Shown here one piece after another: positions 5,357 through 27,290 of a stretch of 32,000 bases of DNA (position 1 is its first letter; every line of letters starts with the position of its first letter). The position numbers and the translations under genes were made by a program. Below the pieces are notes generated by a model, which was not told where the DNA came from, did no database searches, and saw only the letters and a program-made list of their open reading frames with translations. Source of the DNA: Geobacter metallireducens GS-15 (GTDB taxonomy: Bacteria; Desulfobacterota; Desulfuromonadia; Geobacterales; Geobacteraceae). The DNA lies in assembly GCF_000012925.1 (NCBI RefSeq), contig NC_007517.1, forward strand, positions 3,720,001 through 3,752,000, given 5' to 3'.

Positions 5357-5911
5357 ATGAAGCGTCGAGCCGCTTTGCTGCTCTATGTATCCGCCATAGC
5401 ATCGCTTTGTTCCTGCACCTCCACTCCGAAGGCAACGCCTCCGCTGGATTGGGGCTACGAAAAGGAGGCGATCTCCGTCACCCTGAAGGGGGACCCGCAG
5501 CTGAATCTCTTCCAGAAGAGTCCCCACGCTCTCGTGGCCTGCCTCTACCAGCTCCGGGACCCCAATGCCTTCAACCAGTTCCGCACCGAGCCCGACGGCC
5601 TGACCAAGCTTCTGGAGTGCGGCCGCTTCGATCCGGGAGTGGCGACCGCCAAGCGGATGGTGATCCAGCCGGGACAAGAGGTGAACGAGTCCCTGGACCG
5701 AGCCGAAGGGGCCCGCTACGTGGGGTTCGTTGCCGGCTACTACCGCCTTGACAAGGATCGCTCGGCACGGCTCTACACCATCCCCTCAGTGGAAGAGACC
5801 AAGGGTTTCCTCAGCCGGACCAAACTCGTGAAACCGGGACGGCTTGACATGAAACTCCTCCTAGGTCCCCAGGAGATCCAGGACGTGACTGAGGAGACCG
5901 AAAAACCATGA
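5357..5911 (+). CDS. tssJ: Type VI secretion lipoprotein TssJ (VasD/SciN family)
   Basis: 184 aa. Signal peptide with lipobox-like SLCSC. TssJ-like pattern LYQLRDPNAFN...VIQPGQ...ARYVGFVAGYYR. ATGA overlap with tssK. Confidence 0.78.
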   Translation: MKRRAALLLYVSAIASLCSCTSTPKATPPLDWGYEKEAISVTLKGDPQLNLFQKSPHALVACLYQLRDPNAFNQFRTEPDGLTKLLECGRFDPGVATAKRMVIQPGQEVNESLDRAEGARYVGFVAGYYRLDKDRSARLYTIPSVEETKGFLSRTKLVKPGRLDMKLLLGPQEIQDVTEETEKP

Positions 5912-7299: not shown

Positions 7300-7302
7300 C
7301 CC

Positions 7303-7713
7303 ATGCGCGACGAACGTCTTCTGGAACGGATCCGCTCCTTCGAGCGGGACCCGGCCCGGCGCGGCCGCCCCGACCACGGGCGGCTGGTGGAGTCGGTCCT
7401 GGCTCACCTGCGCCAGATTCTCAACACTCGCCAGGGGAGCGCCCCCATTGCCCCCGACTACGGGGTCCCCGATTTTCTCGACTTCCTCCAGACCTACCCC
7501 GACTCGGTGCGGGAGATCGAGCGGAGCATCCGCGTCGCCATCCAGACCTACGAGCCCCGCCTCGACGGGGTGCGGGTCGCCTTCATCCCCCAGGAAGACG
7601 ACGTCCTGGCGCTCCGGTTCCAGATCACCGCCCGGATCACCGATGACGATGGGGGTACGGTCCGCTTCGAGACCGTGGTGGACACCGACGGCAAGATCGC
7701 AGTCAAACGCTGA
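7303..7713 (+). CDS. tssE: Type VI secretion baseplate protein TssE (gp25-like)
   Basis: 136 aa. Pattern LLERI...SVLAHLRQILNTRQGS...PDYGVPDF is typical of TssE/GPW-gp25. Starts 3 nt after the tssK stop. Confidence 0.85.
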   Translation: MRDERLLERIRSFERDPARRGRPDHGRLVESVLAHLRQILNTRQGSAPIAPDYGVPDFLDFLQTYPDSVREIERSIRVAIQTYEPRLDGVRVAFIPQEDDVLALRFQITARITDDDGGTVRFETVVDTDGKIAVKR

Positions 7714-7742
7714 CCGATTCCAGATAAGAGAGCACCCACGCA

Positions 7743-9473: not shown

Positions 9474-10426
9474 AGCAGGAACTCCTCCACCGGGGGCACG
9501 AATTCTCATTCCTCCAGGTGCTCCGGATCCTGGAGCTTCTCGGAGAACGGGACGGGACCAAACGGCCCGTGGAGGTGATCCCCCGGCTCTCCCTGGGCTT
9601 TCCGGCCGCGGACGTAGCCGGGGTGGAGCGGGTCGGCGACGGCTATCGGGTCATTGCCACGTTCCTGGGGCTCTACGGCCAGGCGACCCCGCTTCCCGCC
9701 TTCTACACCGAGGAACTTCTCGACGAGGAAGCCACCGACAGCAGCGCCGGCCGGGATTTCCTCGACATCGTCAACCGGCACATCTACGGCATCTTCGCGA
9801 ATGTTGCCCGGAAATACCGGCTCTTTCTCCAGGTGGACGAGCAGCGCAGCGACGCCGTCACGGAGCGGCTCCACGCCCTCGGGGGGTACGGCGAAGAAAC
9901 GCTTCGGGCCCAACTCCCCGATCCCCGGTCGCTCCTGCGCTACACGGGGCTCTTCGCCCAACACCCCCGCTCGGCCCTGGGGTTGCGGACGCTGCTGACC
10001 GATGCCCTCGACGCGCCGGTGGAGGTAATCTCCGCCGTCCCCCGCATCGTGACGGTACCGCCGGAGGAGCGCTCACGCCTCGGCACCATCGGCACCCTCG
10101 GCGAGGACGCCTTTGTGGGCTCCGAGATCCCCGACCGCTCCGGCATGTTCCGCATTGAGGTGGGTCCCTTGCGCCGCGACCGGTTCGCCGAACTCCTCCC
10201 CGGCACCCCGGAGCGCAAGCGCCTCGACCTCCTCGTCGCCCTCTACATCACCGACCCCCTCGCCTACGAAATCGAGCTGATCCTCGCCCCCGGCGAGGCC
10301 CCGCCGGCCATGCTCGGCAGCGGCATTCGGCTCGGATGGGATGTGTGGATGACGTCAGGGGCGGATGTGGGGCGGGTGTCGGTGAGCTTTCCCGGCGGAG
10401 GGGAGCCCCTCGCGGCACCTCGTTAA
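9437..10426 (+). CDS. tssG: Type VI secretion baseplate protein TssG (ImpH/VasB)
   Basis: 329 aa. EFSFLQVLRILE motif near the N-terminus. GTG start with GAGAGGAG 5 nt upstream. 37-nt overlap with tssF. Confidence 0.87.
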   Translation: MAAASRIPAAPLEQELLHRGHEFSFLQVLRILELLGERDGTKRPVEVIPRLSLGFPAADVAGVERVGDGYRVIATFLGLYGQATPLPAFYTEELLDEEATDSSAGRDFLDIVNRHIYGIFANVARKYRLFLQVDEQRSDAVTERLHALGGYGEETLRAQLPDPRSLLRYTGLFAQHPRSALGLRTLLTDALDAPVEVISAVPRIVTVPPEERSRLGTIGTLGEDAFVGSEIPDRSGMFRIEVGPLRRDRFAELLPGTPERKRLDLLVALYITDPLAYEIELILAPGEAPPAMLGSGIRLGWDVWMTSGADVGRVSVSFPGGGEPLAAPR

Positions 10427-10456
10427 CCGAACAAACCCAAGGAGAATCAACCATTC

Positions 10457-13093
10457 ATGCTGACCGTTGACCTTAAAGCCCTCATATCCCGCCTCAATCC
10501 CCACTGTTCCGGCGCCCTGGAAGGGGCGGCGGGGCTTTGCGTGGCCCGGGGCCACTACGAGGTGACCGTGGAGCACCTCTTGGCGCGGCTTCTGGACGAG
10601 CCGGGGGGTGACCTCCCCCTCATCCTCCGGGCCTTCGAGGTGGATGCCGCATCCGTGAAGGCCGGGATCACCAGGGTCCTCGACGAGCTTCCCTCCGGGA
10701 ACTCGGGGAAGCCGGTCTTCTCGCCGGTGCTTCTGGAGTGGCTCCAGGCAGCGTGGCTCATCACCTCCCTCGACCTCAACGAAGAGCGGATCCGCTCCGG
10801 CGCGCTGCTGCTGGCGCTCCTGGCCCGGCCGCTCCAGCTCACGGCGGGCCGCTACGTGGACCTTCTAATGGCCGTGGGGAGGGAGACGCTCCTCTCCCGC
10901 TTCGGCACGGCCACGGCCGGTTCGGTGGAGCATGCACCGACCAGTGTCCGCTCCGCAACCAGCGACGAGGCACCCAAGGGAACCACCTCTCTCGACCGCT
11001 TCTGCACCGATTTCACCCGCCAGGCGGCGGAAGGTAATATCGACCCGGTCTTCGGCCGGGACCGGGAGATCGGCCAGATGGTCGACATCCTGGCCCGGCG
11101 CCGGAAGAACAACCCCATCATCGTCGGCGAGGCGGGGGTCGGGAAGACCGCCGTAGCCGAAGGGCTTGCACTTCGGATTGTGGAGGGGGACGTGCCGGAG
11201 GCCCTCCGGGAGGTACGGCTCCTGGGGCTCGATCTGGGGCTTCTCCAGGCGGGGGCCGGAGTGAAGGGTGAGTTCGAGAACCGCTTGAAAAGCGTCATCG
11301 AGGAGGTGAAGGGGTCGCCGCGCCCCATCATCCTCTTCATCGACGAGGCCCATACCATCATCGGCGCCGGGGGGCAGACCGGCGGAGGTGACGCCGCTAA
11401 CCTCCTGAAACCGGCCCTGGCCCGAGGGGAACTGCGGACCATCGCCGCCACCACCTGGAGCGAGTACAAGAAATATTTCGAAAAGGACGCGGCCCTGGCC
11501 CGGCGCTTCCAGCCGGTGAAGCTGGACGAGCCGGACGTCGAGACCGCCGTCCTGATCCTGCGGGGTCTCAAGGAGAAGTACGAGGCGGCCCACGGGGTCA
11601 CCATCCGGGACGACGGCATCCGGGCGGCGGCGGAGCTTTCTTCCCGCTACCTGTCGGGGCGCCAGCTCCCGGACAAGGCAGTGGACCTCCTGGATACGGC
11701 GGCGGCCCGGGTGAAGCTCCTTCTCACCGGGAAGCCGGGGGCCGTGGAGGAGAAAGAGCGCCGCATCCAGGCTCTGGAGAGGGAAGAGGCGGCCATGGCC
11801 CGGGACCAGCTCCACGGCCGCCCCGTTGACGACGAGCGACTGGATCTCCTGAAGGCGGAATTGTTAACCCTGCGGGAGGAGTTGGCCGCCGTCACGGCGC
11901 GGTGGCACCGGGAACAGGAGCTGGCCGCGGAAGTGATGGCCCTTCGCAAGGAACTGTCGACGGAAGCGGAAGAAAACGAAGATCGGCGAGGACTGAAACG
12001 GCAGGTGACCGAGGCCACGGCTCGCCTAGCGGAGTTCCAGGGTGACGCCCCATTGGTACGGATCGAGGTGGAGCCGGAGGTGGTGGCCCGGGTGGTGGCC
12101 GACTGGACAGGCATCCCCCTGGGGAGCCTCCAGAAGGACCGGGCCGCCGGGGTCCTCACCCTGGAGGGCGACCTGCGCCGCCGCATCAAGGGGCAGGAGC
12201 CGGCCCTCTCCGCCGTGGCCGAGGTGCTCCGCTCCTCGGCGGCAGGGCTCAAGGACCCACGCCAGCCCCTGGGAGTTTTTCTCCTGGTGGGGCCGTCGGG
12301 GGTCGGGAAGACCGAGACGGCCCTGGCCGTGGCCGACCTCCTCTTCGGGGGGGAGCGGTTCCTCACGGTCATCAACATGAGCGAGTTCCAGGAGCGCCAC
12401 ACCACGAGCCGCCTCATCGGCTCGCCGCCGGGGTACGTGGGGTACGGCGAGGGGGGGGTCCTCACGGAGGCGGTCCGGCGCCAGCCCTACTCGGTGGTCC
12501 TCCTGGACGAAGTGGAGAAGGCCCACCCCGACGTCATGAACCTCTTCTACCAGGTCTTCGACAAGGGGATGCTGGCCGACGGCGAGGGGCGGGTCATCGA
12601 CTTCGCCAACACAGTCATCTTCCTCACGAGTAACCTGGCCTCGGATGTCATCACCTCCCTCTGTTGCGGGGATCAAGCACCGACGGCGGAGGGGCTGACC
12701 TCCGCCATCCGCCCCCACCTCTCCCGACACTTCAAGCCGGCGCTCCTGGCCCGGATGTCGGTGGTCCCCTACCTGACCCTGGCCCCCGAGTACCTGGGGG
12801 AGATCGTTACCCTGAAGCTGGGGCGGGTGGCGGAGCGGCTCCGGGAGAACAGCCGAACGGCGCTTTCTTGGACCCCGGCGGTCACGGAACGGATCGCGGC
12901 CCGCTGCACCGAGGTGGAGAGCGGCGCCCGGACCATCGACCATATCCTACGGAGCACGCTGCTGCCGCTTCTCTCCCGGGAAATTCTCCCCCGGCTCGGC
13001 ACCGGCGAGACGCCGGAGGCTATCAGGCTCGACACGACGGCCGACGGCGACTTTGCCGTCACCTTTGATACCAGTGGAGGCATGGAACAATGA
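10457..13093 (+). CDS. tssH: Type VI secretion AAA+ ATPase ClpV/TssH
   Basis: 878 aa. Clp N-domain. Two AAA+ modules with Walker A GEAGVGKTA and GPSGVGKTE. Coiled-coil middle region. Sits directly after tssG. Confidence 0.93.
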   Translation: MLTVDLKALISRLNPHCSGALEGAAGLCVARGHYEVTVEHLLARLLDEPGGDLPLILRAFEVDAASVKAGITRVLDELPSGNSGKPVFSPVLLEWLQAAWLITSLDLNEERIRSGALLLALLARPLQLTAGRYVDLLMAVGRETLLSRFGTATAGSVEHAPTSVRSATSDEAPKGTTSLDRFCTDFTRQAAEGNIDPVFGRDREIGQMVDILARRRKNNPIIVGEAGVGKTAVAEGLALRIVEGDVPEALREVRLLGLDLGLLQAGAGVKGEFENRLKSVIEEVKGSPRPIILFIDEAHTIIGAGGQTGGGDAANLLKPALARGELRTIAATTWSEYKKYFEKDAALARRFQPVKLDEPDVETAVLILRGLKEKYEAAHGVTIRDDGIRAAAELSSRYLSGRQLPDKAVDLLDTAAARVKLLLTGKPGAVEEKERRIQALEREEAAMARDQLHGRPVDDERLDLLKAELLTLREELAAVTARWHREQELAAEVMALRKELSTEAEENEDRRGLKRQVTEATARLAEFQGDAPLVRIEVEPEVVARVVADWTGIPLGSLQKDRAAGVLTLEGDLRRRIKGQEPALSAVAEVLRSSAAGLKDPRQPLGVFLLVGPSGVGKTETALAVADLLFGGERFLTVINMSEFQERHTTSRLIGSPPGYVGYGEGGVLTEAVRRQPYSVVLLDEVEKAHPDVMNLFYQVFDKGMLADGEGRVIDFANTVIFLTSNLASDVITSLCCGDQAPTAEGLTSAIRPHLSRHFKPALLARMSVVPYLTLAPEYLGEIVTLKLGRVAERLRENSRTALSWTPAVTERIAARCTEVESGARTIDHILRSTLLPLLSREILPRLGTGETPEAIRLDTTADGDFAVTFDTSGGMEQ

Positions 13094-13536
13094 ACCAGCA
13101 TCAAACAGCAATGGGTATCGCCAGGATGGCGTTTCTCCTCTCCCTTTCGCTCACGGCAGCGTGTGCCACCGTGAATACCGCTCCCGTCGAGGAGCAGGCC
13201 GGCCCCCAGGCGCCGGAGACAGGGCTGGAAGCCGAGCCACCCGCTCCCGTACCGGCACCGGCCGCCCCCCCGGCAGTGGCGCCGGTGACCCCTCAGGCAT
13301 CGGTCACCGTAACAACGATCCCTCTGGTCCCCGGGAAAATAACTCCCCGGCAGAAGTACGTGAACGTCCGCCCGGAGCCCTCCACCGGCAAGAAACCTGT
13401 CGCCGTGCTCTCGGGAGGAAAGTACGTGGAGGTGCTCGGCCGGGAGGGGACATGGGTGAAGATTCGCTGGACCCGGGGAAAGAAGGCCCATGAAGGATGG
13501 GTGGCCGGGAAATTTGTGGACACCGTTACTCCCTGA
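13090..13536 (+). CDS. Lipoprotein with Pro/Ala-rich linker and C-terminal bacterial SH3 (SH3b) domain
   Basis: 148 aa. Lipobox LTAAC. The linker is rich in P/A/E. The C-terminus KYVNVRPEPSTGKKPVAVLSGGKYVEVLGREGTWVKIRW...EGWVAGKFV is SH3b-like. ATGA overlap with the clpV stop. GGAGG lies 9 nt upstream. Confidence 0.7.
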   Translation: MNQHQTAMGIARMAFLLSLSLTAACATVNTAPVEEQAGPQAPETGLEAEPPAPVPAPAAPPAVAPVTPQASVTVTTIPLVPGKITPRQKYVNVRPEPSTGKKPVAVLSGGKYVEVLGREGTWVKIRWTRGKKAHEGWVAGKFVDTVTP

Positions 13537-13696: not shown

Positions 13697-13839
13697 ACTA
13701 TACTACCTGCCCGGCAATTTCACCGCCCTGACACACGAAGTCAAACTGCATTGCAGATGCGTTGCCGTACCCGGCTTACACCAAAAGACGTTTTACGAAG
13801 CCCCACGCACACAAAAACCGAGGAGTAAAAGGCCGACCC

Positions 13840-14340
13840 ATGACATCGTTGCCAACCCTTGCCAAGGGGAGATCCGCTGCAGGGAAGCCCCTCCACCTGG
13901 TCGGCTTCCGGGTGGGGAATGAGGAATACTGCTTCGAGATCCTCACGGTGCAGGAGATCATCCGGATAGTACCCATCACTGCCGTTCCCGACGCTCCCGA
14001 GCATGTGGAGGGGATCATCAACCTCCGCGGCAGGATCGTCCCCATCATCGACTTCCGCCGGCGGTTCCGCATAACCGGCGAACGCACCGTCGACGAGGCG
14101 GACAGGGTCATCGTCGTGACCGGCACGGGGAACGCGACCGTCGGTTTCATCGTCGATGGCGTGAGCCAGGTCATGAAGCTGCCTGCCGAGGATCTGTCGC
14201 CTGCGCCGGCGGGAGGCGCGGGGTGCGACGCCGAGGCCATCCGGGGGGTAGGCAACGTGGGCGACCGGCTCGTCATCGTTCTCGATCTGGACAAGATGTT
14301 TTCCGCCGATGAACTAACCACTTTGACAGGAGTGAGCTGA
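13840..14340 (+). CDS. cheW: Chemotaxis coupling protein CheW
   Basis: 166 aa from ATG 13840 (the ORF track starts earlier, at 13762). CheW-like domain: LVGFRVGNEEYCFEILTVQEIIRIVPITAVPDAPEHVEGIINLRGRIVPIIDFRRRF...VGFIVDGVSQV. Confidence 0.9.
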   Translation: MTSLPTLAKGRSAAGKPLHLVGFRVGNEEYCFEILTVQEIIRIVPITAVPDAPEHVEGIINLRGRIVPIIDFRRRFRITGERTVDEADRVIVVTGTGNATVGFIVDGVSQVMKLPAEDLSPAPAGGAGCDAEAIRGVGNVGDRLVIVLDLDKMFSADELTTLTGVS

Positions 14341-14342
14341 CC

Positions 14343-14855
14343 ATGTCCGATCTCATGACCACCCGCGCGGCTCTCCAGGAGACCATGACCTTCCTCGGCG
14401 CCATCGCCAGCGGCATCGAAGAGGCCATCGGCGAATCCGCCAACAGCATCACCTACCTGGCTGGCAAACGGCTCGGCATGCAGCTTTCCGCCAATATCCG
14501 TAAGACCGACGACGTGGAGGAGGCCCTGGAAGCCGTTCACCAAGTGCTCCTCGACAACAACTGCCTCTGGCACTTCGAGCCGTTCAAGGCCCACGACCGG
14601 CCGGCCCTGGTCCAGACCACTGACAGCGGCGACGAGGATCTCCAGCTCGTTTTCCGGGACTGCATGATCCGCCAGTCCCTCTTTCGCTTCGGTCACCACC
14701 AGAAGGGGTCCCTCTGCACCATGATGTTCGGCTTCTTCTCCGGGGCGCTCCTGAACGTCATGGGGGTCGATTCCACCCTGGAGATCCTCCATGCGGGAGA
14801 AAACGCCTGCCTCAAGCGGCTGGTGATCCACAGGAAGAAGGGGGAAGACCAGTGA
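14343..14855 (+). CDS. V4R (4-vinyl-reductase-like, hydrocarbon-binding-protein family) domain protein
   Basis: 170 aa. N-terminal YLAGKRLG segment. C-terminal pattern LVFRDCMIRQ...GSLCTMMFGFFSGALLNVMG...ILHAGENACLKRLVI fits the V4R consensus (xFxC...C..xxGfxxGal...E..C...G...C.f). Starts 3 nt after cheW. Confidence 0.68.
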   Translation: MSDLMTTRAALQETMTFLGAIASGIEEAIGESANSITYLAGKRLGMQLSANIRKTDDVEEALEAVHQVLLDNNCLWHFEPFKAHDRPALVQTTDSGDEDLQLVFRDCMIRQSLFRFGHHQKGSLCTMMFGFFSGALLNVMGVDSTLEILHAGENACLKRLVIHRKKGEDQ

Positions 14856-15802
14856 GCACCGTACCCATAAATCTGGAATGGCTGAGCGACTGCTCGGGCT
14901 GCCATGTGGCCATCGTCGACCTGCACGAGAAAATCCTCGCGGTCCTGGAATCCGTCACCATCCAGCGCTGCCCGGTACTGACTGATGTGAAGGACTACCC
15001 GAAGGCGAAGCTGGGGCTCGTCTCCGGCGCCATCCGGACCGAGCACGACCGCCACGCGGCCATTGAGATGCGCAAGAGCTGCGACCTGATCATCGCCTGG
15101 GGCTCCTGCGCGGTGTACGGGGGGATCGCCGGTGCCGGCAATGTCCATTCCCGCCAGGAGATCATCGATGCAGTCTACATCGGCAACAAGACCACCGCTA
15201 CCCACGCTCCGCCAACGAAGGAGGTTTCGGCCCTGGAGCCGTCCGTCTCCCCCCTGGACAGCGTCATCGACGTGGACCTCTACCTCCCTGGCTGCGCACC
15301 GCACCCGGCCTTTGTATTCGATGCCCTCCTGGCGCTGCTGGAAGGGCGTTCCCCCCGCACCGCCACCGGTGAATCGGTCTGCGCCCGGTGCCGGAGGAAG
15401 ATGGAGAAGACGGAGGTTGACCGGATCAGGAAGAATTCGGAGGGGGTCCCCGACCCGGACCGCTGCTTCCTGAGCCAGGGATACCTCTGCATGGGATCGG
15501 TGACCCTGGACCGCTGCATGTCCCCCTGCCCCCTGAACGGGATACCGTGCAGCGGCTGCGCCGGCGCCACCATGCAGGTGCTGGCCGAGCCCAACCGCGA
15601 CATCCGCACCGAGATCGCCGAGCGGATGTCGCGCCTGACCGAGATCCCCCGGGAAGCCATCGTCCGGGAAATCGAGAGGACATCCAAGACCCACTACTCC
15701 TACACCATGGCGACCCCCATGATCGGCGAGAAGCCCACCTTTCTGATTAAAAAATGGACCGATGAGGAACGAGACGACTATGAACAAGACCATAACCATT
15801 GA
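14852..15802 (+). CDS. [NiFe]-hydrogenase small subunit, cytoplasmic group-3 type (MvhG-like size and Cys pattern)
   Basis: 316 aa with no Tat signal. Proximal-cluster motifs CSGCHVAIVD, GSCAVYGG, LPGCAPHP. C-terminal Cys-rich part CARCRR...CFLSQGYLCMG...CMSPCP...CSGCAG for further FeS clusters. GTGA overlap with the upstream gene. Confidence 0.88.
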   Translation: MSTVPINLEWLSDCSGCHVAIVDLHEKILAVLESVTIQRCPVLTDVKDYPKAKLGLVSGAIRTEHDRHAAIEMRKSCDLIIAWGSCAVYGGIAGAGNVHSRQEIIDAVYIGNKTTATHAPPTKEVSALEPSVSPLDSVIDVDLYLPGCAPHPAFVFDALLALLEGRSPRTATGESVCARCRRKMEKTEVDRIRKNSEGVPDPDRCFLSQGYLCMGSVTLDRCMSPCPLNGIPCSGCAGATMQVLAEPNRDIRTEIAERMSRLTEIPREAIVREIERTSKTHYSYTMATPMIGEKPTFLIKKWTDEERDDYEQDHNH

Positions 15803-17201
15803 TCCCGTCACCCGCATCGAAGGGCATGCGCGGGTCTTCATCGACCTGGACGATGGGGGAGCGCTCAAAGCGGCGGGGCTCGTGGTGAACGAGCTGCGGG
15901 GATTCGAGAAGATCCTGACCGGCATGGACGCGGACCGGATGCCGCTGGTCACGGCCCGCATCTGCGGGGTCTGTCCCACGGCCCACCATCTGGCCGCCAC
16001 CAACGCCCTGGACAACGCCGCGGGCGTTGAGCCCCCAACCGCCGCGAAACTCCTGCGGGAGCTCATGTACATGGGGCACCTGATCCACTCCCATTGCCTC
16101 TCCCTCTTCGTGCTCCAGGGGCCGGACCTGGTCCTGGGGCTCGACGCCGACCCCGCCATCCGCAACGTGGTGGGGGTGGTGCAGGCGGTCCCCGACATCG
16201 CCAGAAAGGCCCTCCAGTGCCGCTCCATCGGCCAGAAGATCAACGAGCTGGTGGGGGGACGGGGAACCCACCCCGTCACCTCGGTGGCCGGGGGGATCGC
16301 CTTTGTGCTCGACGCCGACCGTGAGCGCCAGCTGAACGCCTGGATCCAGGAAGCCCACGGGCTCGTGCTGGAACTGGCGCCGGTGGTGAAGCAACTCCTC
16401 ATGAAGATGCTCGACGCCAACCCGGCGATGCTGGAACAGTGGGTCATCCCGGCCTGGAGTGTGGGCACCGTCAAGGGCGACGGCACCATCGCCCTGGTGA
16501 ACGGAGAGATACGGGCCATTGACGAAAGCGGAGCCCGGAAGGCCCAGTTCCCCACCGCCGGCTACGACACCCACCTCTCCGAAGCGGCGGTGGATTTCTC
16601 CTACATGAAGCAGGTCTCCTTTGTGGAGGGCGAGACCCGCCACGACTACCGGGTCGGCCCCCTGGCGCGGCTGAACATCTCCGACCGGTACGGCACCCCC
16701 CTGGCGGACCGTGAGCGGGAGGAATTCATCCGGACCGTGGGCCGCCCCTGCCATGCCAATGCCCTCCAGCCCTGGGCCCGTCTGATCGAGCTTCTCTACT
16801 GCACAGAGCGGGCGCAGGAAATCATGGCCTCCCCGGAGATCCACGGCGAGACGCGGGTGCCGGTGAAATTCTCCGGCGGACGGGGGGTGGGGCACGTGGA
16901 GGCCCCCCGGGGAACCCTGATCCACGACTACGAGATCGACGAGAACGGCATCGTCCGGGCCGCGAACCTCATCGTGGCGACCCAGCAGAACTATGCCCTG
17001 ATCAACACCATGATCGCCCAGGCCGCCACGTCCCATGTCATCAACCGCCCCGACGACCAGGCCCTGCTCAACGCGGTGGAGTTCGGCATCCGCTGCTACG
17101 ACCCCTGCCTTTCCTGCGCCACCCATGCCTTGGGGGCCATGCCGCTGGAAATCGTCGTGAACCGTGCCGACAGGCCCCATCTCATCAGGAGGAACTGCTG
17201 A
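15780..17201 (+). CDS. [NiFe]-hydrogenase large subunit, group-3 type, with cleavable C-terminal extension
   Basis: 473 aa from ATG 15780 (GAGGAA 10 nt upstream). ITIDPVTRIEGH. N-terminal Ni-binding motif RICGVCPTAHH. C-terminal DPCLSCATH followed by a 24-aa extension. Confidence 0.92.
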   Translation: MNKTITIDPVTRIEGHARVFIDLDDGGALKAAGLVVNELRGFEKILTGMDADRMPLVTARICGVCPTAHHLAATNALDNAAGVEPPTAAKLLRELMYMGHLIHSHCLSLFVLQGPDLVLGLDADPAIRNVVGVVQAVPDIARKALQCRSIGQKINELVGGRGTHPVTSVAGGIAFVLDADRERQLNAWIQEAHGLVLELAPVVKQLLMKMLDANPAMLEQWVIPAWSVGTVKGDGTIALVNGEIRAIDESGARKAQFPTAGYDTHLSEAAVDFSYMKQVSFVEGETRHDYRVGPLARLNISDRYGTPLADREREEFIRTVGRPCHANALQPWARLIELLYCTERAQEIMASPEIHGETRVPVKFSGGRGVGHVEAPRGTLIHDYEIDENGIVRAANLIVATQQNYALINTMIAQAATSHVINRPDDQALLNAVEFGIRCYDPCLSCATHALGAMPLEIVVNRADRPHLIRRNC

Positions 17202-17452
17202 TGGTCGAGATCAAGCTCCATGAAGAGGCGTGCCGCGGCTGCAGGATGTGCGTGGACATCTGCCCCACCAAGGTCTTTGCCTTCGACGAGGAGAAGCGGC
17301 TCTGCGCGGTGGAGCACCGGGACGACTGTATCGCCTGCCTGAGCTGCGCCTACCTCTGCCCCTCCGGGGCGCTGCGCCACGAGGATTATCACGTTGTGAA
17401 AAACTTCTACCGGGACCTGGCTTTCTGCGCCAAGATGGAGAAATTCATATGA
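17201..17452 (+). CDS. 2x[4Fe-4S] ferredoxin
   Basis: 83 aa. CRGCRMCVDICP and CIACLSCAYLCP motifs. TGATG overlap with the large subunit. Confidence 0.85.
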   Translation: MVEIKLHEEACRGCRMCVDICPTKVFAFDEEKRLCAVEHRDDCIACLSCAYLCPSGALRHEDYHVVKNFYRDLAFCAKMEKFI

Positions 17453-17907
17453 GCACCACGACCACGGAACAGGTCACCCTTGAGGACCATGTAAACGCCG
17501 CGACCGAGGTTGCCTTTCTGCTGGACATCTTCGCCGCCACCGTCGACACCATCATGGGGGGGGCAACGGCGTCGGTGGGGAGGATCGCCGGGCGGGAAAT
17601 GGCGCGCAAGCTCCCGATCCACCTGACAAACCCGACCCTGGACGAGATCGTCGCGCTCCTCAATTCCCGCATGAAGGCCGGGTACCAGTTCCGGCTGGAG
17701 GGGGAAGGGACGGAGCGCGTCCTCCTGTTCGACCACTGCGTTCTGCAGGAGGTCTGCGCCAAGCGGGGGCTCACCCTGGGGACGGCCCTCTGCCGCCTCT
17801 TCCATGCCTACCTGGACGGAATCCTGAACGAACTCATCTGCCGCCCGGTGAAATCGGAGGTTGTCTCATGCGGGGACCAGTGCCGCCTGAGTCTCAGGAC
17901 TCAGTAG
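17449..17907 (+). CDS. Second V4R-domain protein
   Basis: 152 aa from ATG 17449 (GGAG 8 nt upstream, ATGA overlap with the ferredoxin). The ORF track frame starts further upstream. RIAGREMA segment. C-terminal LLFDHCVLQEVC...ALCRLFHAYLDGILNELI...VVSCGDQCRLSL is V4R-like. Confidence 0.65.
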   Translation: MSTTTTEQVTLEDHVNAATEVAFLLDIFAATVDTIMGGATASVGRIAGREMARKLPIHLTNPTLDEIVALLNSRMKAGYQFRLEGEGTERVLLFDHCVLQEVCAKRGLTLGTALCRLFHAYLDGILNELICRPVKSEVVSCGDQCRLSLRTQ

Positions 17908-18389
17908 CTTTCCGCAGAATCGTTGTGGTCTGCGTGGGCAACGACCTGGTGGCCGACGACGCCGCGGGGTTCGAGGTCTACCGGAAGCTGGCCGGCTCGT
18001 CCCTACCGCCGGGGGTCACGCTCCACTACGCGGCCGTGGGGGGGATTGACCTCCTTGACTACCTGACCGGCGATGAGTCGGCCATGATCGTCGTGGACGC
18101 GGTCCAGTTCGGCGCGCCAACGGGAACCATCCACAACCTCGGCTGGAATGAGCTCCCCGATTTCGGCGCCGGGGCCATATCGGCCCATTTCATCGGCCTG
18201 AAGGAAACCATCGACATCGGGAGATGCCTCTACCCGGAGCTGATCCCGTCAACGGTGTTGCTGGTGGGGATCGAGGGACGCCGCTTCGACCAGACCCGCG
18301 ACGCCATGTCGCCGGAGGTGGCCGCCGCCATCGAGCCCGCCACCGCCTCCATCCGGGAACATCTTCACACTCTCCGCCAAGGAACCTGA
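17868..18389 (+). CDS. Hydrogenase maturation endopeptidase
   Basis: 173 aa. RIVVVCVGNDLVADDAAGFEVYRKL resembles the HycI/HybD-family N-terminus. GGAGG lies 7 nt upstream. Confidence 0.85.
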   Translation: MRGPVPPESQDSVAFRRIVVVCVGNDLVADDAAGFEVYRKLAGSSLPPGVTLHYAAVGGIDLLDYLTGDESAMIVVDAVQFGAPTGTIHNLGWNELPDFGAGAISAHFIGLKETIDIGRCLYPELIPSTVLLVGIEGRRFDQTRDAMSPEVAAAIEPATASIREHLHTLRQGT

Positions 18390-18390
18390 C

Positions 18391-19995
18391 ATGAAGACAT
18401 CCACCGCCAAAGAGACAAAACCGACTCTGCACAGCGAGATACAGAGGCTCGCCGAAGCCATGATGAACGGCAGGCTCGACGAGCGGGGAAACCCCGCCCA
18501 GTTCACCGGTGACGACGCCGCCCTGGTCCTCACGGTCAACCGGATGCTGGACACCCTCGTGACCCCGCTGCGCCTGGCCGCCGGCGCCATCGACGAGATC
18601 GCCCACGGCAGGATCCCACCCTTCGTCATCGACGACTATGCCGGGGAATACAACACCCTCAAGCGCAACCTCAACACCCTCCTGGCAACGCTGTACGGCC
18701 TCGACAGCGAGACCCGGCACCTCATCGGCAACATCGGCGAGGGACGACTCCAGACCCGGGGCAACGACTGGGATTTCGAGGGGATCTGGCGGGACCTCAT
18801 CAGGGGGGTGAACGGCACCCTCGACGCGGTAATCGACCCGGTGAACGAAGCCGGGACCGTCCTGCAGCGCCTGGCCCAATACGATCTGAGCGCCCGGATG
18901 CGGGGGAAGTACCACGGTGAGCATGCCGCCATCAAGAAGGCCATGAACGCCACGGCGGAATCCCTCCACTCCGCCGTGACCCAGATGGCGGAGACGGTGG
19001 ACCTGGTCTCCGCCGTCGGCGAGCAGATTGCCGCCAGCAGCCAGACCGTCACCGCGGGTACCCGGGAGCAGGAGACGCAACTCACCGAGGCGGCCAGCGT
19101 CCTCAATCACATCGCCGACACCTCCCAGAAGAGCGCCAAAAACACCGCCGACGCCCGGCAGGTGGCCCAGCAGGCCGCCGAGTCCATCGGCACCGCCAAG
19201 ACCGTCATGGACCAGATGCTCCACGCCATGGGGGAGATCCGCGGCTCCGCCGACAACACCGTCGGCATCGTCCAGCAGATCGACGCCATCGCCAAGGAGA
19301 CCGACAAGCTCTCCTCCAACGCCACCAGCAAGGCGGCCCTGATCCGCTCCTCGGCCAGCGGCTTCAGCGTGGTCGCCTCCGAGGTGCGGAACCTGTCGAA
19401 GCGGTGCGAGGAGGCAGTCTCCCGGCTCCACGACTTCCGGCGCCGGGTCACTTTCACCCCCAATGCCGGCACCGACAGCACCACCGATCAGCTGGTGAGC
19501 GAGTATCTCGACCTCATCCACGACCTGAAGAGCGTCGCCTCCAACTCCGGGCTCCTGGGAGTGAACGCGGCCATTTCGGCGGCCCACGTGGAGGGGGCCG
19601 GCAACGACTTCCAGGTCCTCACCGAAGAGATCCGTGAACTGGCCAAGCGCTCCACCGACGCGGCCAAGCAGACCGACACCCTCATCAGGACATCGGTGGA
19701 GCAGGCCCGCAAGGGAGAGGACCTTTCCCAGGCAATCGACGGCCACCTCACCACGGCGGTGACCGGGGCATCCACCATCAGCTCCCTCACCGACGAGATC
19801 TCCCAGAGCAGCCAGGAACAGGCCAGCGCCATCGAGGAGATCAGCTGCTCCGTCACCCACATCAACGAGGTCACCCGGCAGAACGCCGCCTGCGCCCTCT
19901 CGTCGTCCGAAGTGGCCCAGGGGCTGGGGCAGCAGGTGACGAAGTTGTCGAAGATGGTGAGCAAGTTCCGGCTGGCGAGGGCGGCGGGGCAATAA
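18391..19995 (+). CDS. Soluble methyl-accepting chemotaxis protein, poly-HAMP N-terminus, duplicated degenerate signalling tip
   Basis: 534 aa with no hydrophobic segment long enough for a TM helix. About four HAMP-like units in residues 14-195. MCP signalling-domain helices are present (SSQEQASAIEEIS...VTRQNAA). Two tip-like motifs are described in the findings. Confidence 0.9.
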   Translation: MKTSTAKETKPTLHSEIQRLAEAMMNGRLDERGNPAQFTGDDAALVLTVNRMLDTLVTPLRLAAGAIDEIAHGRIPPFVIDDYAGEYNTLKRNLNTLLATLYGLDSETRHLIGNIGEGRLQTRGNDWDFEGIWRDLIRGVNGTLDAVIDPVNEAGTVLQRLAQYDLSARMRGKYHGEHAAIKKAMNATAESLHSAVTQMAETVDLVSAVGEQIAASSQTVTAGTREQETQLTEAASVLNHIADTSQKSAKNTADARQVAQQAAESIGTAKTVMDQMLHAMGEIRGSADNTVGIVQQIDAIAKETDKLSSNATSKAALIRSSASGFSVVASEVRNLSKRCEEAVSRLHDFRRRVTFTPNAGTDSTTDQLVSEYLDLIHDLKSVASNSGLLGVNAAISAAHVEGAGNDFQVLTEEIRELAKRSTDAAKQTDTLIRTSVEQARKGEDLSQAIDGHLTTAVTGASTISSLTDEISQSSQEQASAIEEISCSVTHINEVTRQNAACALSSSEVAQGLGQQVTKLSKMVSKFRLARAAGQ

Positions 19996-23209: not shown

Positions 23210-23278
23210 ACAGAGCAACTGAGAATTTATCAAAAACAGTCTGAAAGGTTTTTCCCAGATTTTGCTCAGTTGCTCTGT
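23210..23278. repeat. 14-bp perfect inverted repeat spanning the stop codon of the hydrogenase protease gene
   Basis: ACAGAGCAACTGAG (23210-23223) and CTCAGTTGCTCTGT (23265-23278) are separated by a 41-nt AT-rich spacer. The right arm encodes the last codons and the stop codon. Confidence 0.6.
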
Positions 23279-23784
23279 TGCTCAGTGTTTCGAGTGCATT
23301 TTTCAGGATCAAGCGGCTCGGGAACCACTCCCCACAGGGCAAGCTCCGCGAGGACCTTCTCCACAAGATGGTCCACCTGCGCCGCCACCGCCGGCGTGAG
23401 CTCCATCCCCAGTTCCACCGACTCCGGCTGCACCCCCCACAGGACCATCTCGACGGGACAGCTCCCCTGGAACTCGGCCACGGCCAAAAGATCCTGGAGC
23501 CCCATCTGGTGGGGAGAGAGCTTGGTCCGGAAGGCCACCGGAATCTCCTCCCCCGCCAGCCGCACCACCGTCCCCGGTGGTCCGCCGGTCTCCACGGCAT
23601 CCACCAGGAGGAGCCGCTCCACGCCGTCCAGGTAAGGGAGCAGGTCGAGGCCGAGGGTGCCGCCGTCCATGACCGTCACTCCTTCGGGGAAGCGGCACCC
23701 GTCCATGAGCCGCTGCGCCACCCGTACGCCGGCGCCGTCGTCGGTCATGATCAGGTTCCCGATGCCGAGCACGAGAATCGACAT
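23266..23784 (-). CDS. hyaD: Hydrogenase maturation protease (HyaD/HybD family)
   Basis: 172 aa. MSILVLGIGNLIMTDDGAGVRVAQRL. Last gene of the uptake hydrogenase operon. Confidence 0.9.
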   Translation of the reverse strand: MSILVLGIGNLIMTDDGAGVRVAQRLMDGCRFPEGVTVMDGGTLGLDLLPYLDGVERLLLVDAVETGGPPGTVVRLAGEEIPVAFRTKLSPHQMGLQDLLAVAEFQGSCPVEMVLWGVQPESVELGMELTPAVAAQVDHLVEKVLAELALWGVVPEPLDPEKCTRNTEQQSN

Positions 23785-23785
23785 T

Positions 23786-24454
23786 CTACTCCCCCCGCTT
23801 CACCGGCTTGTAGCCGCCGAAGATGCTCGACATGACCCCGCCCCGTTCCTTCACGTCCATGAGCCAAGCGCTGTAGATGTGATGGATGGCAAAGGCGATG
23901 AGAAGCCACATGCCCATGTGGTGGGTGAGCCGCATCCCCTGGTTGCTGAAGAGAGCGTAGAGCGGCGTGAGGAGAACATGCGCCAAACCGCCTGGCGCGT
24001 GCTCGGCATCGAGGGCGAAGCCGGTGCCGGCCATCACCAGATAGAGGACAAAGACGAGAAGGTACGTGGCTCCGGCCAGGGCGTTGTGGCCGGTGGGGTG
24101 GGGAACCTTCCGGGAGAGGAAGACGTAGTAGAGGAACATCCGCCCCATGTCGCGCCGCCCTTCGGGATAGATGAACGGGACAAACTCCCGCCACCCGGCG
24201 TAGCGGTTCCCCGCGAAGGCCCACCAGATGCGGCTCACGATACTCACGGCAAAGGCATACCCTGCCGTAAGATGCACCACCCGCACCCAACCCATGACAA
24301 AGTCGGCGGGAACGAGCCCCAGGGTCCTGGGGGAGCCGATGTAGAAGCCGGTGACCGAGAGGACGATGATGGCGATCACGTTGACCCAGTGGGTCAGCCG
24401 CACCGGGACCTCCCAGACGTACTTTTCGTAAAGACAGCTCCGGTTCCGTGCCAT
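23786..24454 (-). CDS. hyaC: Ni/Fe-hydrogenase b-type cytochrome subunit
   Basis: 222 aa. Four predicted TM helices with conserved His residues (RLTHWVN..., HLTAGYAF, THHMGMW, AIHHIY). Confidence 0.9.
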   Translation of the reverse strand: MARNRSCLYEKYVWEVPVRLTHWVNVIAIIVLSVTGFYIGSPRTLGLVPADFVMGWVRVVHLTAGYAFAVSIVSRIWWAFAGNRYAGWREFVPFIYPEGRRDMGRMFLYYVFLSRKVPHPTGHNALAGATYLLVFVLYLVMAGTGFALDAEHAPGGLAHVLLTPLYALFSNQGMRLTHHMGMWLLIAFAIHHIYSAWLMDVKERGGVMSSIFGGYKPVKRGE

Positions 24455-24463
24455 GGCGACCTC

Positions 24464-26164
24464 CTACAGGACCTTGACGCTCACCAGCTCGCCGCCGCGG
24501 GGATCGACCACGTGGACGGCGCAGGCGAGGCACGGATCGAAGGAGTGGATGGTGCGGAGGATCTCCAGGGGCTTGTTGGGGTCGGCCATGGGGGTGCCGA
24601 CCAGGGCCGCCTCGTAGGGGCCCCGCTGCCCCTTCTCATCCCGGGGTGACGCGTTCCAGGTGGAGGGGACCACCGCCTGGTAATTCTCGATTTTCTGGTC
24701 CCTGATCCTGATCCAGTGACCGAGAGCACCCCGGGGAGCGTTGTGCCAGCCGTACCCCGCCGTCTCCCGGGGCCAGGTGGCGGGGTCCCACTTCTCGCCG
24801 TTATGAATCGCCAGATCGCCGCCGGCCACGTTGGCCACGAGCATGTCGAGCCACTTGGGAAGTTCCTGAGCCACCAACAGGGTCTCGATCCCCCGGGCCG
24901 CGGTCCGACCGAGCGTCGAGAAGAGCGCCTCCGGGCCGACCCCCAGCTTGCCGAGGACCAGCTCCACCGCCCCTTTCGTCCCCTGGTGCCCCGCGGCGTA
25001 GGCCACGAGGATGGTGGCCAGGGGGCCGGTCTCCATCGGCTTGCCGTCGTAGCGGGGGGATTTCACCCAGGAGTACTTCTTGTCCGTGTCGATCATGTCG
25101 TAGGGGGGCGTGGGGCCAGTGTACCGTACCTCGGTCTGCTCTTCCCACGGATGGACCCCGGCATCACCCCCCTCGTACCAGGAGTGGGCCACGCTCTCGG
25201 TGATCTTTTGCTGGTCGATGGGATAGACCCGGGAGAGGTCCTTGCCCACGATGATCCCCTGGGGAAACCAGAGCTTTTCCGGCTTGCCGCTGTTGTCCAG
25301 CGGGTATTCGCCGTAGGAGATGTAGTTCCCCACCCCTCCGCCGATTCCGGCCCACTCCTTGTAGAAGGAGGCCACCGCCAGGAGATCGGGAATGTAGACC
25401 TTCTCCACGAACGCCTTGGCCTTTTTGAGGAGCTGGGCAATCTCGGCGATCTTGTCGGCGTTGAGGGCGTTCTGGGAGTTGGGATCCACGGGGATCGCCA
25501 TGCCACCGACGAGGAAGGTCTGGGGGTGGGGGTTTTTGGAGCCGAGGATGGCGTGGATCTTGATGACCTCCCGTTGCCAGTCCAGGGCCTCCAGGTAGTG
25601 GGCCGTGGCCATGAGGTTCGCCTCGGGCGGCAGCTTGTAGGCCGGGTGTCCCCAGTAGGCGTTGCCGAAGGGGCCAAGGCGCCCTTTTTTCACGAAGGCG
25701 GCCACCTTGTCCTGTACCGACTTGAAGTAGGTGGGGGAGTTGAGGGGCCAGTCGGAAAGGGAGGCAGCCAAGGCTGCGGTCTTTGTGGGGTCGGCCTTGA
25801 GAGCTGAGACCACGTCCACCCAGTCGAGGGCGTGGAGGTGGTAGAAGTGGATCACGTGGTCCTGCACCACCTGGATGCCGATGATGAGGTTCCTGATCAA
25901 CTCCGCGTTCAGGGGGACGCGGATGTTCAGGGCGTTCTCCACGGCCCGGATGGAGGCTATGGAGTGGACCGTGGTGCAGACGCCGCAGAAGCGCTGGGTG
26001 AAGTACCAGGCGTCCCGGGGATCGCGCCCTTTGAGGATCTTCTCGATCCCCCGGAACATGGTGCTGGAGCTCCAGGCATCGGTTATCTGGCCCCCGTTCA
26101 CCTCGGCCTGGATACGGAGGTGCCCCTCTATTCTCGTAATCGGGTCAACGACGATCCTGGCCAT
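24464..26164 (-). CDS. hyaB: Group-1 uptake [NiFe]-hydrogenase large subunit
   Basis: 566 aa. VVDPITRIEGH, RFCGVCTTVH, and C-terminal DPCLACAVHVV plus an extension. GGAAGGAGGGG lies 6 nt upstream. Confidence 0.95.
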   Translation of the reverse strand: MARIVVDPITRIEGHLRIQAEVNGGQITDAWSSSTMFRGIEKILKGRDPRDAWYFTQRFCGVCTTVHSIASIRAVENALNIRVPLNAELIRNLIIGIQVVQDHVIHFYHLHALDWVDVVSALKADPTKTAALAASLSDWPLNSPTYFKSVQDKVAAFVKKGRLGPFGNAYWGHPAYKLPPEANLMATAHYLEALDWQREVIKIHAILGSKNPHPQTFLVGGMAIPVDPNSQNALNADKIAEIAQLLKKAKAFVEKVYIPDLLAVASFYKEWAGIGGGVGNYISYGEYPLDNSGKPEKLWFPQGIIVGKDLSRVYPIDQQKITESVAHSWYEGGDAGVHPWEEQTEVRYTGPTPPYDMIDTDKKYSWVKSPRYDGKPMETGPLATILVAYAAGHQGTKGAVELVLGKLGVGPEALFSTLGRTAARGIETLLVAQELPKWLDMLVANVAGGDLAIHNGEKWDPATWPRETAGYGWHNAPRGALGHWIRIRDQKIENYQAVVPSTWNASPRDEKGQRGPYEAALVGTPMADPNKPLEILRTIHSFDPCLACAVHVVDPRGGELVSVKVL

Positions 26165-27290
26165 GGTCTACCCCTCCTTCCCCGTCGGATTCATCTCCCT
26201 TGCGCAGCGCGCTCACCACGCCGTGGATGCCGAAGACCGCCGCCGTGGCCGCAGCGACGCCAAGGCCGATCTTGTCGGCCGTGGCCTCGATCCCGAAACC
26301 GGGAACGCTGGGAAGCCGCCGGTAGAAGGGGGTCATGGTGTCCCAGAAGTGGGGCTCGGAGCAGCCGGCACAGCCGTGGCCTGATCCCACTGGCCAGCTC
26401 GTCTTCTCGTTGTAGCGCTGGGTCGGGCAGTTGTGGAAGGTTTCGGGCCCCTTGCACCCCATCTTGTAGAGGCAGTGGCCGGCACGGTGGGCCTGGTCGC
26501 CCCATTGCTCCACGTACTGGCCGGCGTCGAAGTGGGGGCGGCGTTCGCAGTTGTCGTGAATCCGCTTGCCGTAGGCGAAAAGGGGGCGTCCCTTGCTGTC
26601 GGTGGCCGGGAGCTTGCCGAAGGTGAGGATATGGACCACGGTGGCCACCAGATTGTCGGTGTTGACGGGGCAGCCGGGAAGGTTGATGACCGTGGCGCCG
26701 GGGACCGCGTCCTTGACCCCCACGGCGCCGGTGGGGTTGGGGGATGCAGCCGGGATGCCGCCGTAGGAGGCGCAGGTGCCGACGGTGATGGTGGCCATGG
26801 CGCCGCCGCAGACCTCCCGGGCGATATCCACGGCCGATCTCCCGCCGACGCAGCAGTAGACGCCGTTGTCCTTCATGGGGATCGCCCCCTCGACGACGGC
26901 GATGTACTTGCCACTTCGCTCTTTCAGGGTCTTCAGCCGCGCCTCCTCGGCCTGGTGGCCGGCGGCGGCCATGATGGTCTCGGCATAATCAATGGAGAGG
27001 ACGTCGAGGACGATCTCACCCACCGTGGGGTTAGCGGCCCGCAGGAGCGCCTCGGTGTCGCCGGTGCAACTCTGGAATTCGAGCCAGATCACCGACGGCC
27101 GACTGTCGCTCTCCAGCGCCTCGGCAATGCGTGGCGCCAGGGAGACCGGCAGGGCCAAGGCCGCCGACATGGCGGTGCAGAACTTCAGGAAGTCGCGCCG
27201 GGATACCCCCCGCTCCTCCCAGGGCCCCGACGTGCCGGAACAATGCTGCTTCATCTCGTCATGCTCATCACCATTCTTCGCCATGGACAT
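26145..27290 (-). CDS. hyaA: Group-1 uptake [NiFe]-hydrogenase small subunit (Tat-exported, C-terminal anchor)
   Basis: 381 aa. Twin-arginine signal SRRDFLKFCTAMSAALALP. FeS Cys ligands are present. C-terminal hydrophobic helix IGLGVAAATAAVFGIHGVVSAL. Confidence 0.95.
   Translation of the reverse strand: MSMAKNGDEHDEMKQHCSGTSGPWEERGVSRRDFLKFCTAMSAALALPVSLAPRIAEALESDSRPSVIWLEFQSCTGDTEALLRAANPTVGEIVLDVLSIDYAETIMAAAGHQAEEARLKTLKERSGKYIAVVEGAIPMKDNGVYCCVGGRSAVDIAREVCGGAMATITVGTCASYGGIPAASPNPTGAVGVKDAVPGATVINLPGCPVNTDNLVATVVHILTFGKLPATDSKGRPLFAYGKRIHDNCERRPHFDAGQYVEQWGDQAHRAGHCLYKMGCKGPETFHNCPTQRYNEKTSWPVGSGHGCAGCSEPHFWDTMTPFYRRLPSVPGFGIEATADKIGLGVAAATAAVFGIHGVVSALRKGDESDGEGGVDHGQDRR

Follow-up and report, generated by a model that had tools for sequence, protein, structure and literature searches.

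The Gmet_3324 receptor and its two tip motifs

The window analyzed here, a stretch of 32,000 nucleotides from Geobacter metallireducens GS-15 (assembly GCF_000012925.1, contig NC_007517.1, positions 3,720,001 to 3,752,000), contains a gene, Gmet_3324, for a methyl-accepting chemotaxis protein (MCP) in which the segment forming the tip of the signaling hairpin is present twice. The gene occupies positions 18391-19995 of the plus strand; its open reading frame (ORF), together with Pfam and phmmer matches, describes a soluble poly-HAMP chemoreceptor of 534 amino acids, and the labels that Tran et al. (2008) give in a supplementary alignment identify GSU2423 as its G. sulfurreducens orthologue. 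The frame is uninterrupted, and its ATG lies 1 nt past the stop codon of a gene for a HycI-type hydrogenase maturation protease, with the sequence AAGGAA found 7 nt upstream of the ATG. Long antisense ORFs are found throughout the window, among them one of 600 aa opposite the receptor gene (18190-19992, minus strand); they are not genes but a consequence of the G+C content of 64-66%.

Within the protein, HAMP_2 matches two stretches (123.9 bits against a cut-off of 24.3, E = 2.4e-36), the best of them at residues 129-192. Together with helices predicted by AlphaFold2 at residues 13-25, 41-71, 86-116 and 129-163, these matches define an N-terminal poly-HAMP region of residues ~13-192 (18427-18966, plus strand), and a Pfam scan for domains detected no PAS domain, Cache domain or transmembrane segment. 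The MCPsignal family (PF00015) is also matched, at 102.8 bits against a cut-off of 34.6, with the match split into two stretches. On the N-terminal side of the tip region lies the putative methylation and flexible-bundle helix of the N-arm (18967-19254, plus strand), which aligns with Tsr without gaps and carries an EQ/TE motif with an invariant Q227; on the C-terminal side, the C-arm helix (19699-19980, plus strand) is likewise ungapped against Tsr as far as the C-terminus, where there is no NWETF-type pentapeptide. By alignment, the segments REQETQLTE (which holds Q227) and SSQEQASAIEE would correspond to the Tsr methylation helices.

The top NCBIfam match of the protein is Aer2 (NF041847), at 215.9 bits against a cut-off of 1200. 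Like the soluble poly-HAMP receptors of the Aer2 type, which belong to the 36-heptad (36H) class, Gmet_3324 has a HAMP_2 array followed by a signaling domain whose arms are gapless against the 36H receptor Tsr; unlike Aer2, it has no PAS-haem domain, scores far below the NF041847 cut-off, carries a doubled tip and has lost the glycine triad of the turn. Judged from its sequence, Gmet_3324 is a soluble poly-HAMP chemoreceptor of the Tsr/Aer2 type, with 36H spacing.

Comparison of Gmet_3324 with the Tsr cytoplasmic fragment 1qu7 (phmmer against the PDB) returned two matches, both of them gapless, in which residues 224-343 align with 1qu7 2-121 (independent E-value 1.9e-9) and residues 372-529 with 1qu7 68-225 (7.9e-17). 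Because both matches include 1qu7 68-121, a 54-residue segment of the Tsr tip occurs twice in Gmet_3324, at an offset of exactly 82 residues. A profile seeded with Tsr 358-425, which we used to locate and count tips, also matches twice, defining copy 1 at residues 289-349 (19255-19437, plus strand; E = 1.2e-25) and copy 2 at residues 374-436 (19510-19698, plus strand; E = 3.1e-28). Each copy contains a former turn. In copy 1 this is IRSSASG (residues 318-324, 19342-19362, plus strand), where the equivalents of Tsr G390 and G393 are gone and that of G395 is retained as G324; in copy 2 it is VEGAGND (residues 400-406, 19588-19608, plus strand), from which the equivalents of G390 and G395 are gone. 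A variable linker, VTFTPNAGT (residues 353-361, 19447-19473, plus strand), lies between the two copies, which share 26% identity along 53 aa (E = 8e-9 when only those two fragments were searched). A DNA-level repeat search found no 246-nt-spaced repeat in the gene; with no DNA repeat surviving, the duplication must be old and not an artefact of assembly.

Phmmer alignments further show that the N-arm, from methylation helix to tip, and the C-arm, from tip to C-terminus, are both collinear with Tsr and free of insertions and deletions (indels). The arms measure ~126 aa (~18 heptads) each, and an extra 82 aa (~12 heptads) lie between them; residues 147-338 also match residues 4-196 of 3zx6 with a difference in length of a single residue. 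Both arms thus have 36H spacing, though the protein is not a 36H receptor with a single tip. A first-pass annotation of this DNA, made without database searches, had called attention to the interval 19267-19686 (residues 293-432) and proposed a tandem duplication of ~82 aa centered on the tip, with 36H-like distances from the N-arm to tip 1 and from tip 2 to the C-arm. The paired 1qu7 and tip-profile matches confirm the first of these proposals, and the gapless Tsr alignments the second; the motif sequences quoted in that annotation are correct, and alignment by hidden Markov model finds the duplicated segment in place of a single continuous hairpin. The alignment of homologues and the AlphaFold2 models also agree with its description of the insert, in which a piece of the C-arm comes before a variable linker and a piece of the N-arm after it. 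We conclude from these alignments that a segment of ~82 aa centered on the signaling hairpin tip is duplicated in tandem, and that the duplication took place long ago and has been retained family-wide.

Conservation and divergence of the two copies

Both motifs are retained in all 120 of the closest homologues of Gmet_3324 (50-98% identity), which come from Geobacter, Geomonas, Geoanaerobacter and metagenome-assembled genomes (MAGs) of Desulfuromonadales, and indels among them are confined to the linker. Cluster representatives at 36-44% identity also have both motifs, including one (cluster member MEI7892269.1) of Myxococcales MAG origin. Of the 291 collected proteins that the tip profile matched, 175 have two tips, 71-88 aa apart, the other 116 being long poly-HAMP receptors with a single tip. 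The spacing between tips is 82 aa in 93 proteins, 78 in 24, 71 in 24 and 75 in 15, with a few others at 73-88, and all of this variation maps to the linker (residues 353-361 in Gmet_3324). The spacing classes of 71, 75, 78 and 82 aa are discrete and track clades, with steps of 3-4 residues, or about one helical turn. An apparent second tip at a distance of 137 aa in P0145, a poly-HAMP receptor of 1314 aa, was rejected as a false match to repeats in the C-arm; tandem 'GANEVSKNVQ'-like repeats at residues 1190-1290 of that protein score weakly as if they were another tip.

The small protein whose gene lies two positions upstream of the MCP gene served as the seed of a metagenome scan, which returned 64 operons. 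In all 42 that reach the tip region a double-tip MCP directly follows HycI, and none of these 42 loci holds a single-tip receptor that might represent the state before duplication; the taxonomic range of the double-tip family, taken from a scan of a genome collection, is a lower bound. The first-pass annotation had noted that an insert missing from all orthologues would point to a strain-specific duplication or an assembly artefact, and the insert is instead present in every orthologue examined. The exact Gmet_3324 protein is found on 34 contigs, the gene has an intact frame and no DNA-level repeat, and the doubled tip recurs in all orthologues and in every metagenome operon that could be scored. 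Nothing was found to suggest that the doubled tip arose by misassembly, is peculiar to this strain or belongs to a decaying pseudogene, and we regard that explanation as refuted, with a residual probability close to nil.

The two copies differ in which parts of the canonical tip they preserve. We measured retention as the fraction of sequences matching the canonical residue, in Tsr numbering, with the 116 single-tip relatives as the reference for each copy. Copy 1 retains the positions equivalent to 364-375 and the near-turn portion of the C-helix (G395, F396, V398, V399, A400, E402, R404 and L406, each at 0.94-1.00). Copy 2 retains the near-turn portion of the N-helix (L377 0.74, L378 0.99, N381 0.99, A382 1.00, A383 0.88, E385 0.58, A386 0.98 and A387 0.99), along with the equivalent of G393 and the far part of the C-helix (406-425). 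Direct comparison of copy 1 with copy 2 gives 0.31 versus 0.99 for N381, 0.21 versus 0.99 for A387 and 0.03 versus 0.74 for L377 in the N-helix, and 0.97 versus 0.31 for V398, 0.98 versus 0.01 for A400 and 0.96 versus 0.63 for R404 in the C-helix. The turn glycines G390, G393 and G395 are retained at 0.05, 0.06 and 0.99 in copy 1 and at 0.06, 0.96 and 0.09 in copy 2, as compared with 0.99-1.00 throughout in the single-tip relatives; each copy thus keeps only one of the three, and A389 is replaced by I or V in both.

These positions can be set against the known contacts of the Tsr tip. According to a 2026 review, residues of Tsr within 4 Å of CheA-P5 and CheW comprise Q374, I377, L380, N381, V384 and R388, as well as A383, A387, F373, L378 and E385, with R404 listed for CheW (PMC13098124, Table 1). 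Each chain retains one such contact surface, that of copy 2, with V in place of L380, I in place of V384 and H in place of R388; in Gmet_3324 the corresponding positions of copy 1 are mostly polar (K, S, N, S, L). This distribution indicates that the copies have diverged in a complementary manner, with the N-helix of copy 2 holding the predicted contact residues for CheW, CheA-P5 and the neighboring dimer, and the C-helix of copy 1 the near-turn face. The first-pass annotation had called both tips degenerate. The loss of canonical turn residues from each copy is evident in the per-position comparison with the 116 single-tip relatives, but the word undersells the complementary retention between the copies.

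Predicted geometry of the doubled tip

A full-length monomer model of Gmet_3324, computed with AlphaFold2 from a family alignment of 112 sequences, contains unbroken helices at residues 177-352 and 362-533, with a predicted local distance difference test (pLDDT) score of 85-89 over both motifs. The sole helix break predicted in the signaling domain is the linker at residues 353-361. A separate AlphaFold2 run on the fragment 290-435 (146 residues) gave helices at 291-355 and 362-434 joined by a loop at 356-361, with a mean pLDDT of 86.3 and no dip at either motif; in both runs, both former turns (318-324 and 400-406) are predicted to be helical. A Foldseek search of the PDB with the fragment model returned only generic long two-helix hairpins, none of them significant. 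The first-pass annotation had predicted a tip that was either forked or extended, and of these two options the monomer models favor the extended one, both motifs being helical and the turn falling in the linker.

Based on these models, we lean slightly toward an extended tip, in which the former turns are straightened and the true U-turn is the variable linker at residues 353-361. In such a structure, the N-arm helix would run on through copy 1, reverse at the linker and return through copy 2 as the C-arm helix, making the four-helix bundle of the homodimer ~6 heptads per arm longer (from 36H to ~48H) and leaving the variable loop at its distal end. Residue i of the N-arm would pair with residue j of the C-arm at i+j = 721 (781 in Tsr numbering), a relation that places the two former tips at the same level, side by side. 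Below the former tips, the C-helix of copy 1 would pair with the N-helix of copy 2 at the canonical layers, creating a module that is upside-down relative to the shaft, and this distal module would be the docking site for CheW and for a CheA whose gene lies elsewhere. The replacement of A389 by I or V in both copies suits a core layer that continues through the former turns, and we count it in favor of the extended geometry.

Alternatively, both motifs may still form U-turns, such that the chain would run down the N-arm, up for 4 heptads, through the linker, down for 5 heptads and up the C-arm. Each subunit would then present a four-helix 'pseudo-dimer' tip, yielding a forked homodimer, or the short hairpin would pack back onto the main bundle; only the face made by the C-helix of copy 1 and the N-helix of copy 2 would be canonical, providing one docking face per chain in its normal orientation. 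Such a closed tip accounts for the persistence of glycines at both motifs and for a near-canonical GxxGRGF in copy 1 of distant relatives. It sets the same two helices next to each other at canonical levels, and so explains the complementary conservation equally well, it keeps the docking surface in its canonical orientation relative to the shaft, and it is the fold to be expected right after tandem duplication of a canonical tip. Against it, two AlphaFold2 runs yield straight helices with pLDDT values of 86-89 at both motifs, even though the 146-aa fragment could readily have folded into a closed four-helix bundle, and each copy has lost two members of a glycine triad that does not vary in single-tip receptors and bears the A389 to I/V replacement. 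Moreover, with one canonical N-helix per pseudo-dimer, the tip would be unable to form trimers and also bind CheW and P5 as Tsr does, and we know of no precedent for a forked receptor dimer. We regard a closed or forked tip as unlikely, if still a serious contender.

Several considerations weigh against the extended tip and the input proposed for it below. The AlphaFold2 models are monomeric, whereas receptors are dimers; the alignment behind them is shallow (112 sequences, ~50 effective in a comparable MAFFT alignment); and AlphaFold2 can err on coiled coils. Both former turns are still glycine-rich, with family consensus sequences of SAGGFG and EGAGND, and distant relatives have a near-canonical VGxSGRGF in copy 1, features that fit real turns or a hinge. 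An inverted docking module would also receive conformational signals at its 'wrong' end. The closed model shares every contact made in the extended one, so conservation and covariation do not tell the two apart. Finally, both the binding of CheW and CheA and a dependence on H2 are putative for Gmet_3324, and some lineages have the module without CheW.

Two candidate discriminators were tried and set aside. In Tsr, too, the a/d register runs unbroken through the tip, which makes the heptad register useless for telling a turn from a straight helix. Covariation, calculated as mutual information with average product correction over residues 262-462 (121 sequences, ~50 effective), placed several top pairs near i+j = 721, which are compatible with both models, and no convincing pairs near i+j = 639; pairs near i+j = 803 fall in a block of clade-specific positions, the distant residue 460 among them, that covary with one another. 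Covariation, too, proved to have no power to separate the extended model from the closed one.

A further arrangement for a chain with two tips is exemplified by DosM (VC1403) of the Vibrio cholerae F9 cytoplasmic arrays, a known receptor with two signaling domains. Like Gmet_3324, DosM is soluble, has two signaling motifs per chain and lacks a ligand-binding domain of its own; it differs in having two complete tandem signaling domains, with a tip at each end of a rod, and a triple-CheW protein in its F9 clusters (PMC7534058, PMC9321776). Gmet_3324, by contrast, duplicates only ~82 aa around the tip and sits in a hydrogenase operon with a single-domain CheW. Were it a DosM-like scaffold, a rod bridging two CheA/CheW baseplates of a cytoplasmic array, the helix linking its opposite ends would have to equal both ~18-heptad arms summed, and the tips lie just 71-88 aa apart. 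Pfam, moreover, finds one MCPsignal domain in two stretches rather than two domains, the neighboring CheW is not the triple CheW of F9 systems, and there is no F9 che cluster in the window or at related loci. Geometry refutes this reading and the gene context does not fit it either, and we consider it highly improbable.

If the AlphaFold2 models are correct, Gmet_3324 would resemble the long heptad classes of receptors, being simply a ~48-heptad bundle produced by symmetric insertion. Such length classes are said, after Alexander and Zhulin in 2007, to owe their different lengths to heptad indels placed symmetrically in the arms and to share one canonical distal tip. Compared with these classes, Gmet_3324 differs in that its extra heptads are a copy of the tip, its distal turn would be a non-conserved loop, and the conserved motif would be internal. 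MiST recognizes heptad classes of 48H, 52H, 58H and 64H (PMC6943060), and a '40+24H' class has been named for Geobacter, with no definition given there (PMC3543383); no definition of these classes in terms of a doubled tip was found. The term '40+24H' is absent from the text and supplements of Tran et al. (2008) and from the supplements of the G. metallireducens genome paper, and no link between it and Gmet_3324 was established. The supplementary alignment of Tran et al. (2008) includes Gmet3324/GSU2423, with tip 2 taken as the tip, and term searches across the main text and supplements returned no discussion of a doubled tip in these proteins. We found no description of the Gmet_3324 tip duplication in the searchable literature.

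The hydrogenase module and its receptor

Gmet_3324 is preceded by a set of plus-strand genes that together with it form a conserved module. First in this set, in loci of the Geobacter type, is a gene for a protein with one CheW domain (13762-14340), followed by a 170-aa protein of unassigned function (14343-14855), the small subunit (14852-15802) and large subunit (15762-17201, with RICGVC and DPCLSC motifs intact) of a NiFe hydrogenase, a ferredoxin with two 4Fe-4S motifs (17201-17452), a 152-aa protein (17449-17907) and the HycI-type maturation protease (17868-18389), which is fused to the MCP in some lineages. The 170-aa protein has a weak sub-threshold match to DUF2507 and is a paralogue of the 152-aa protein, which has a weak sub-threshold match to ATC_hydrolase and, across 8 homologues, four invariant cysteines and one invariant histidine; by Pfam clan membership both proteins may be 'V4R-like'. 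The ORF calls for the two hydrogenase subunits overlap by 41 nt (15762-15802), and a later ATG (MNKTITIDP...) is the probable start of the large subunit. The nearest solved relative of the large subunit is MvhA (5odc, 3.7e-97), followed by the NiFe large subunit 7t2r and by F420-reducing and NAD-reducing hydrogenases. Judged by best solved relatives only, the large subunit has an affinity to group 3 and not to [NiFe] group 2b, and on account of this affinity we call the hydrogenase cytoplasmic. In the G. sulfurreducens literature, the corresponding hydrogenase is GSU2417-2420 (PMC2669807).

Other genes in the window lie outside this module. Immediately upstream are the type VI secretion genes tssJ, tssK, tssE, tssF, tssG and clpV (5357-13093, plus strand), followed by a gene for an SH3-domain protein (13090-13536), a neighborhood that is not conserved at related loci. 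The minus strand carries another NiFe hydrogenase operon at 23266-27290, this one of the uptake type; it encodes a small subunit with a NiFe_hyd_SSU_C domain (26145-27290), a large subunit (24464-26164), a cytochrome b (23786-24454) and a HycI protease of its own (23266-23784).

At least 7 genome loci, one of them binned as Ignavibacteriae, share the gene order that begins with the 170-aa protein and ends with the MCP, and the module order is also the same in contigs L081 and L082 and in the metagenome loci. The module was found in Geobacterales, Desulfuromonadaceae, one MAG of the Desulfobacteraceae type and one 'Ignavibacteriae' MAG, a range that is a lower bound. CheW precedes the module in the clades with tip spacings of 82 and 71 aa (the latter at loci L090-L140), and does not do so in the spacing-78 clade (loci L106 and L125-L130) or in L081 and L082. 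HycI-MCP fusions of ~690 aa occur in several lineages (P0058; P0073 at L081 9001-11082; P0218/P0304). Fused proteins include one from a Myxococcales MAG, and one source annotates a fusion only as 'hydrogenase maturation protease'.

The first-pass annotation had pointed to an adjacent CheW and to CheA paralogues as candidate partners of the tips; the CheW gene is indeed present, and the window holds no CheA gene. At none of the loci examined is a CheA, CheY, CheR or CheB gene adjacent to the module. This absence would be expected if kinase control had been lost and the altered tip bound CheW only, or nothing, with the receptor serving as a CheW sink, a hydrogenase scaffold or a methylation-dependent regulator outside arrays. 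Consistent with such a loss, R388, F373, Q374 and the glycine triad are non-canonical in either copy, and in some lineages the module has no CheW. One set of CheW/P5-contact residues is nevertheless under strong purifying selection, each in one copy (N381 0.99, A387 0.99, A383 0.88, R404 0.96), the putative methylation-helix motif is retained with Q227 invariant, and CheW is co-encoded in two major clades. Loss of kinase control strikes us as quite improbable.

The composition of the module suggests that the hydrogenase and the MCP constitute a chemosensor for hydrogen or redox state. Gmet_3324 has no sensor domain, and its input probably arises where it touches the hydrogenase complex or the Cys-rich small proteins; from the gene context, the hydrogenase, the ferredoxin and/or these small proteins would touch the HAMP array, and the 152-aa Cys-rich protein may be a metal- or cluster-binding relay of the signal to the receptor. 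The signal would then pass through the HAMP array and the 36H-type shaft to control a CheA encoded elsewhere, by way of CheW bound to the N-helix surface of copy 2, such that the receptor would report H2 or the redox state of the hydrogenase to a chemosensory pathway.

Established H2-sensing systems pair HoxBC or HupUV, [NiFe] hydrogenases of group 2b, with the kinase HoxJ or HupT. As in these sensory hydrogenases, the hydrogenase of the present module is co-encoded and co-conserved with a signal-transduction protein; unlike HoxBC/HupUV, it is apparently of the group-3 type, and its output would be an MCP, with or without CheW, rather than a histidine kinase. MCP-linked sensing of H2 has been proposed for putative 'chemotactic' hydrogenases of [FeFe] group C2 in the HydDB paper, the available portions of which list no [NiFe] class linked to an MCP (PMC5037454).

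Taken whole, an explanation that combines an ancient tip duplication, an extended bundle and hydrogenase-linked input is one that we think somewhat better than evenly probable. A more elaborate proposal, which we consider improbable but not outlandish, is that the two glycine-rich former turns act as a hinge with an inverted canonical CheW/CheA module below it; the receptor could then build an array of unprecedented polarity, or switch between extended and folded-back states, and so couple a cytoplasmic group-3-type NiFe hydrogenase directly to chemotaxis; Geobacter and its relatives would then possess hydrogen or redox taxis.

No part of bacterial chemoreceptors is more conserved than the hairpin tip, the site of kinase control, trimer formation and array assembly, and in the single-tip relatives collected here the tip is free of indels. 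The doubled-tip receptor looks to be undescribed, possibly serving in hydrogen sensing, and a large, conserved family in which conserved surfaces have been split between two tip copies amounts to a natural experiment on the roles of individual tip features. If the AlphaFold2 model is true, the surface that binds CheW and CheA need not sit at the U-turn. In the organisms concerned, H2 is a key electron donor and a syntrophic currency, and the strict linkage of the receptor to a presumably cytoplasmic NiFe hydrogenase operon, which extends to gene fusions, suggests that in Geobacter, Desulfuromonadales and uncultured lineages related to them the chemosensory input is hydrogen or redox state, in a system that is genetically tractable in both G. 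sulfurreducens (GSU2423) and G. metallireducens.

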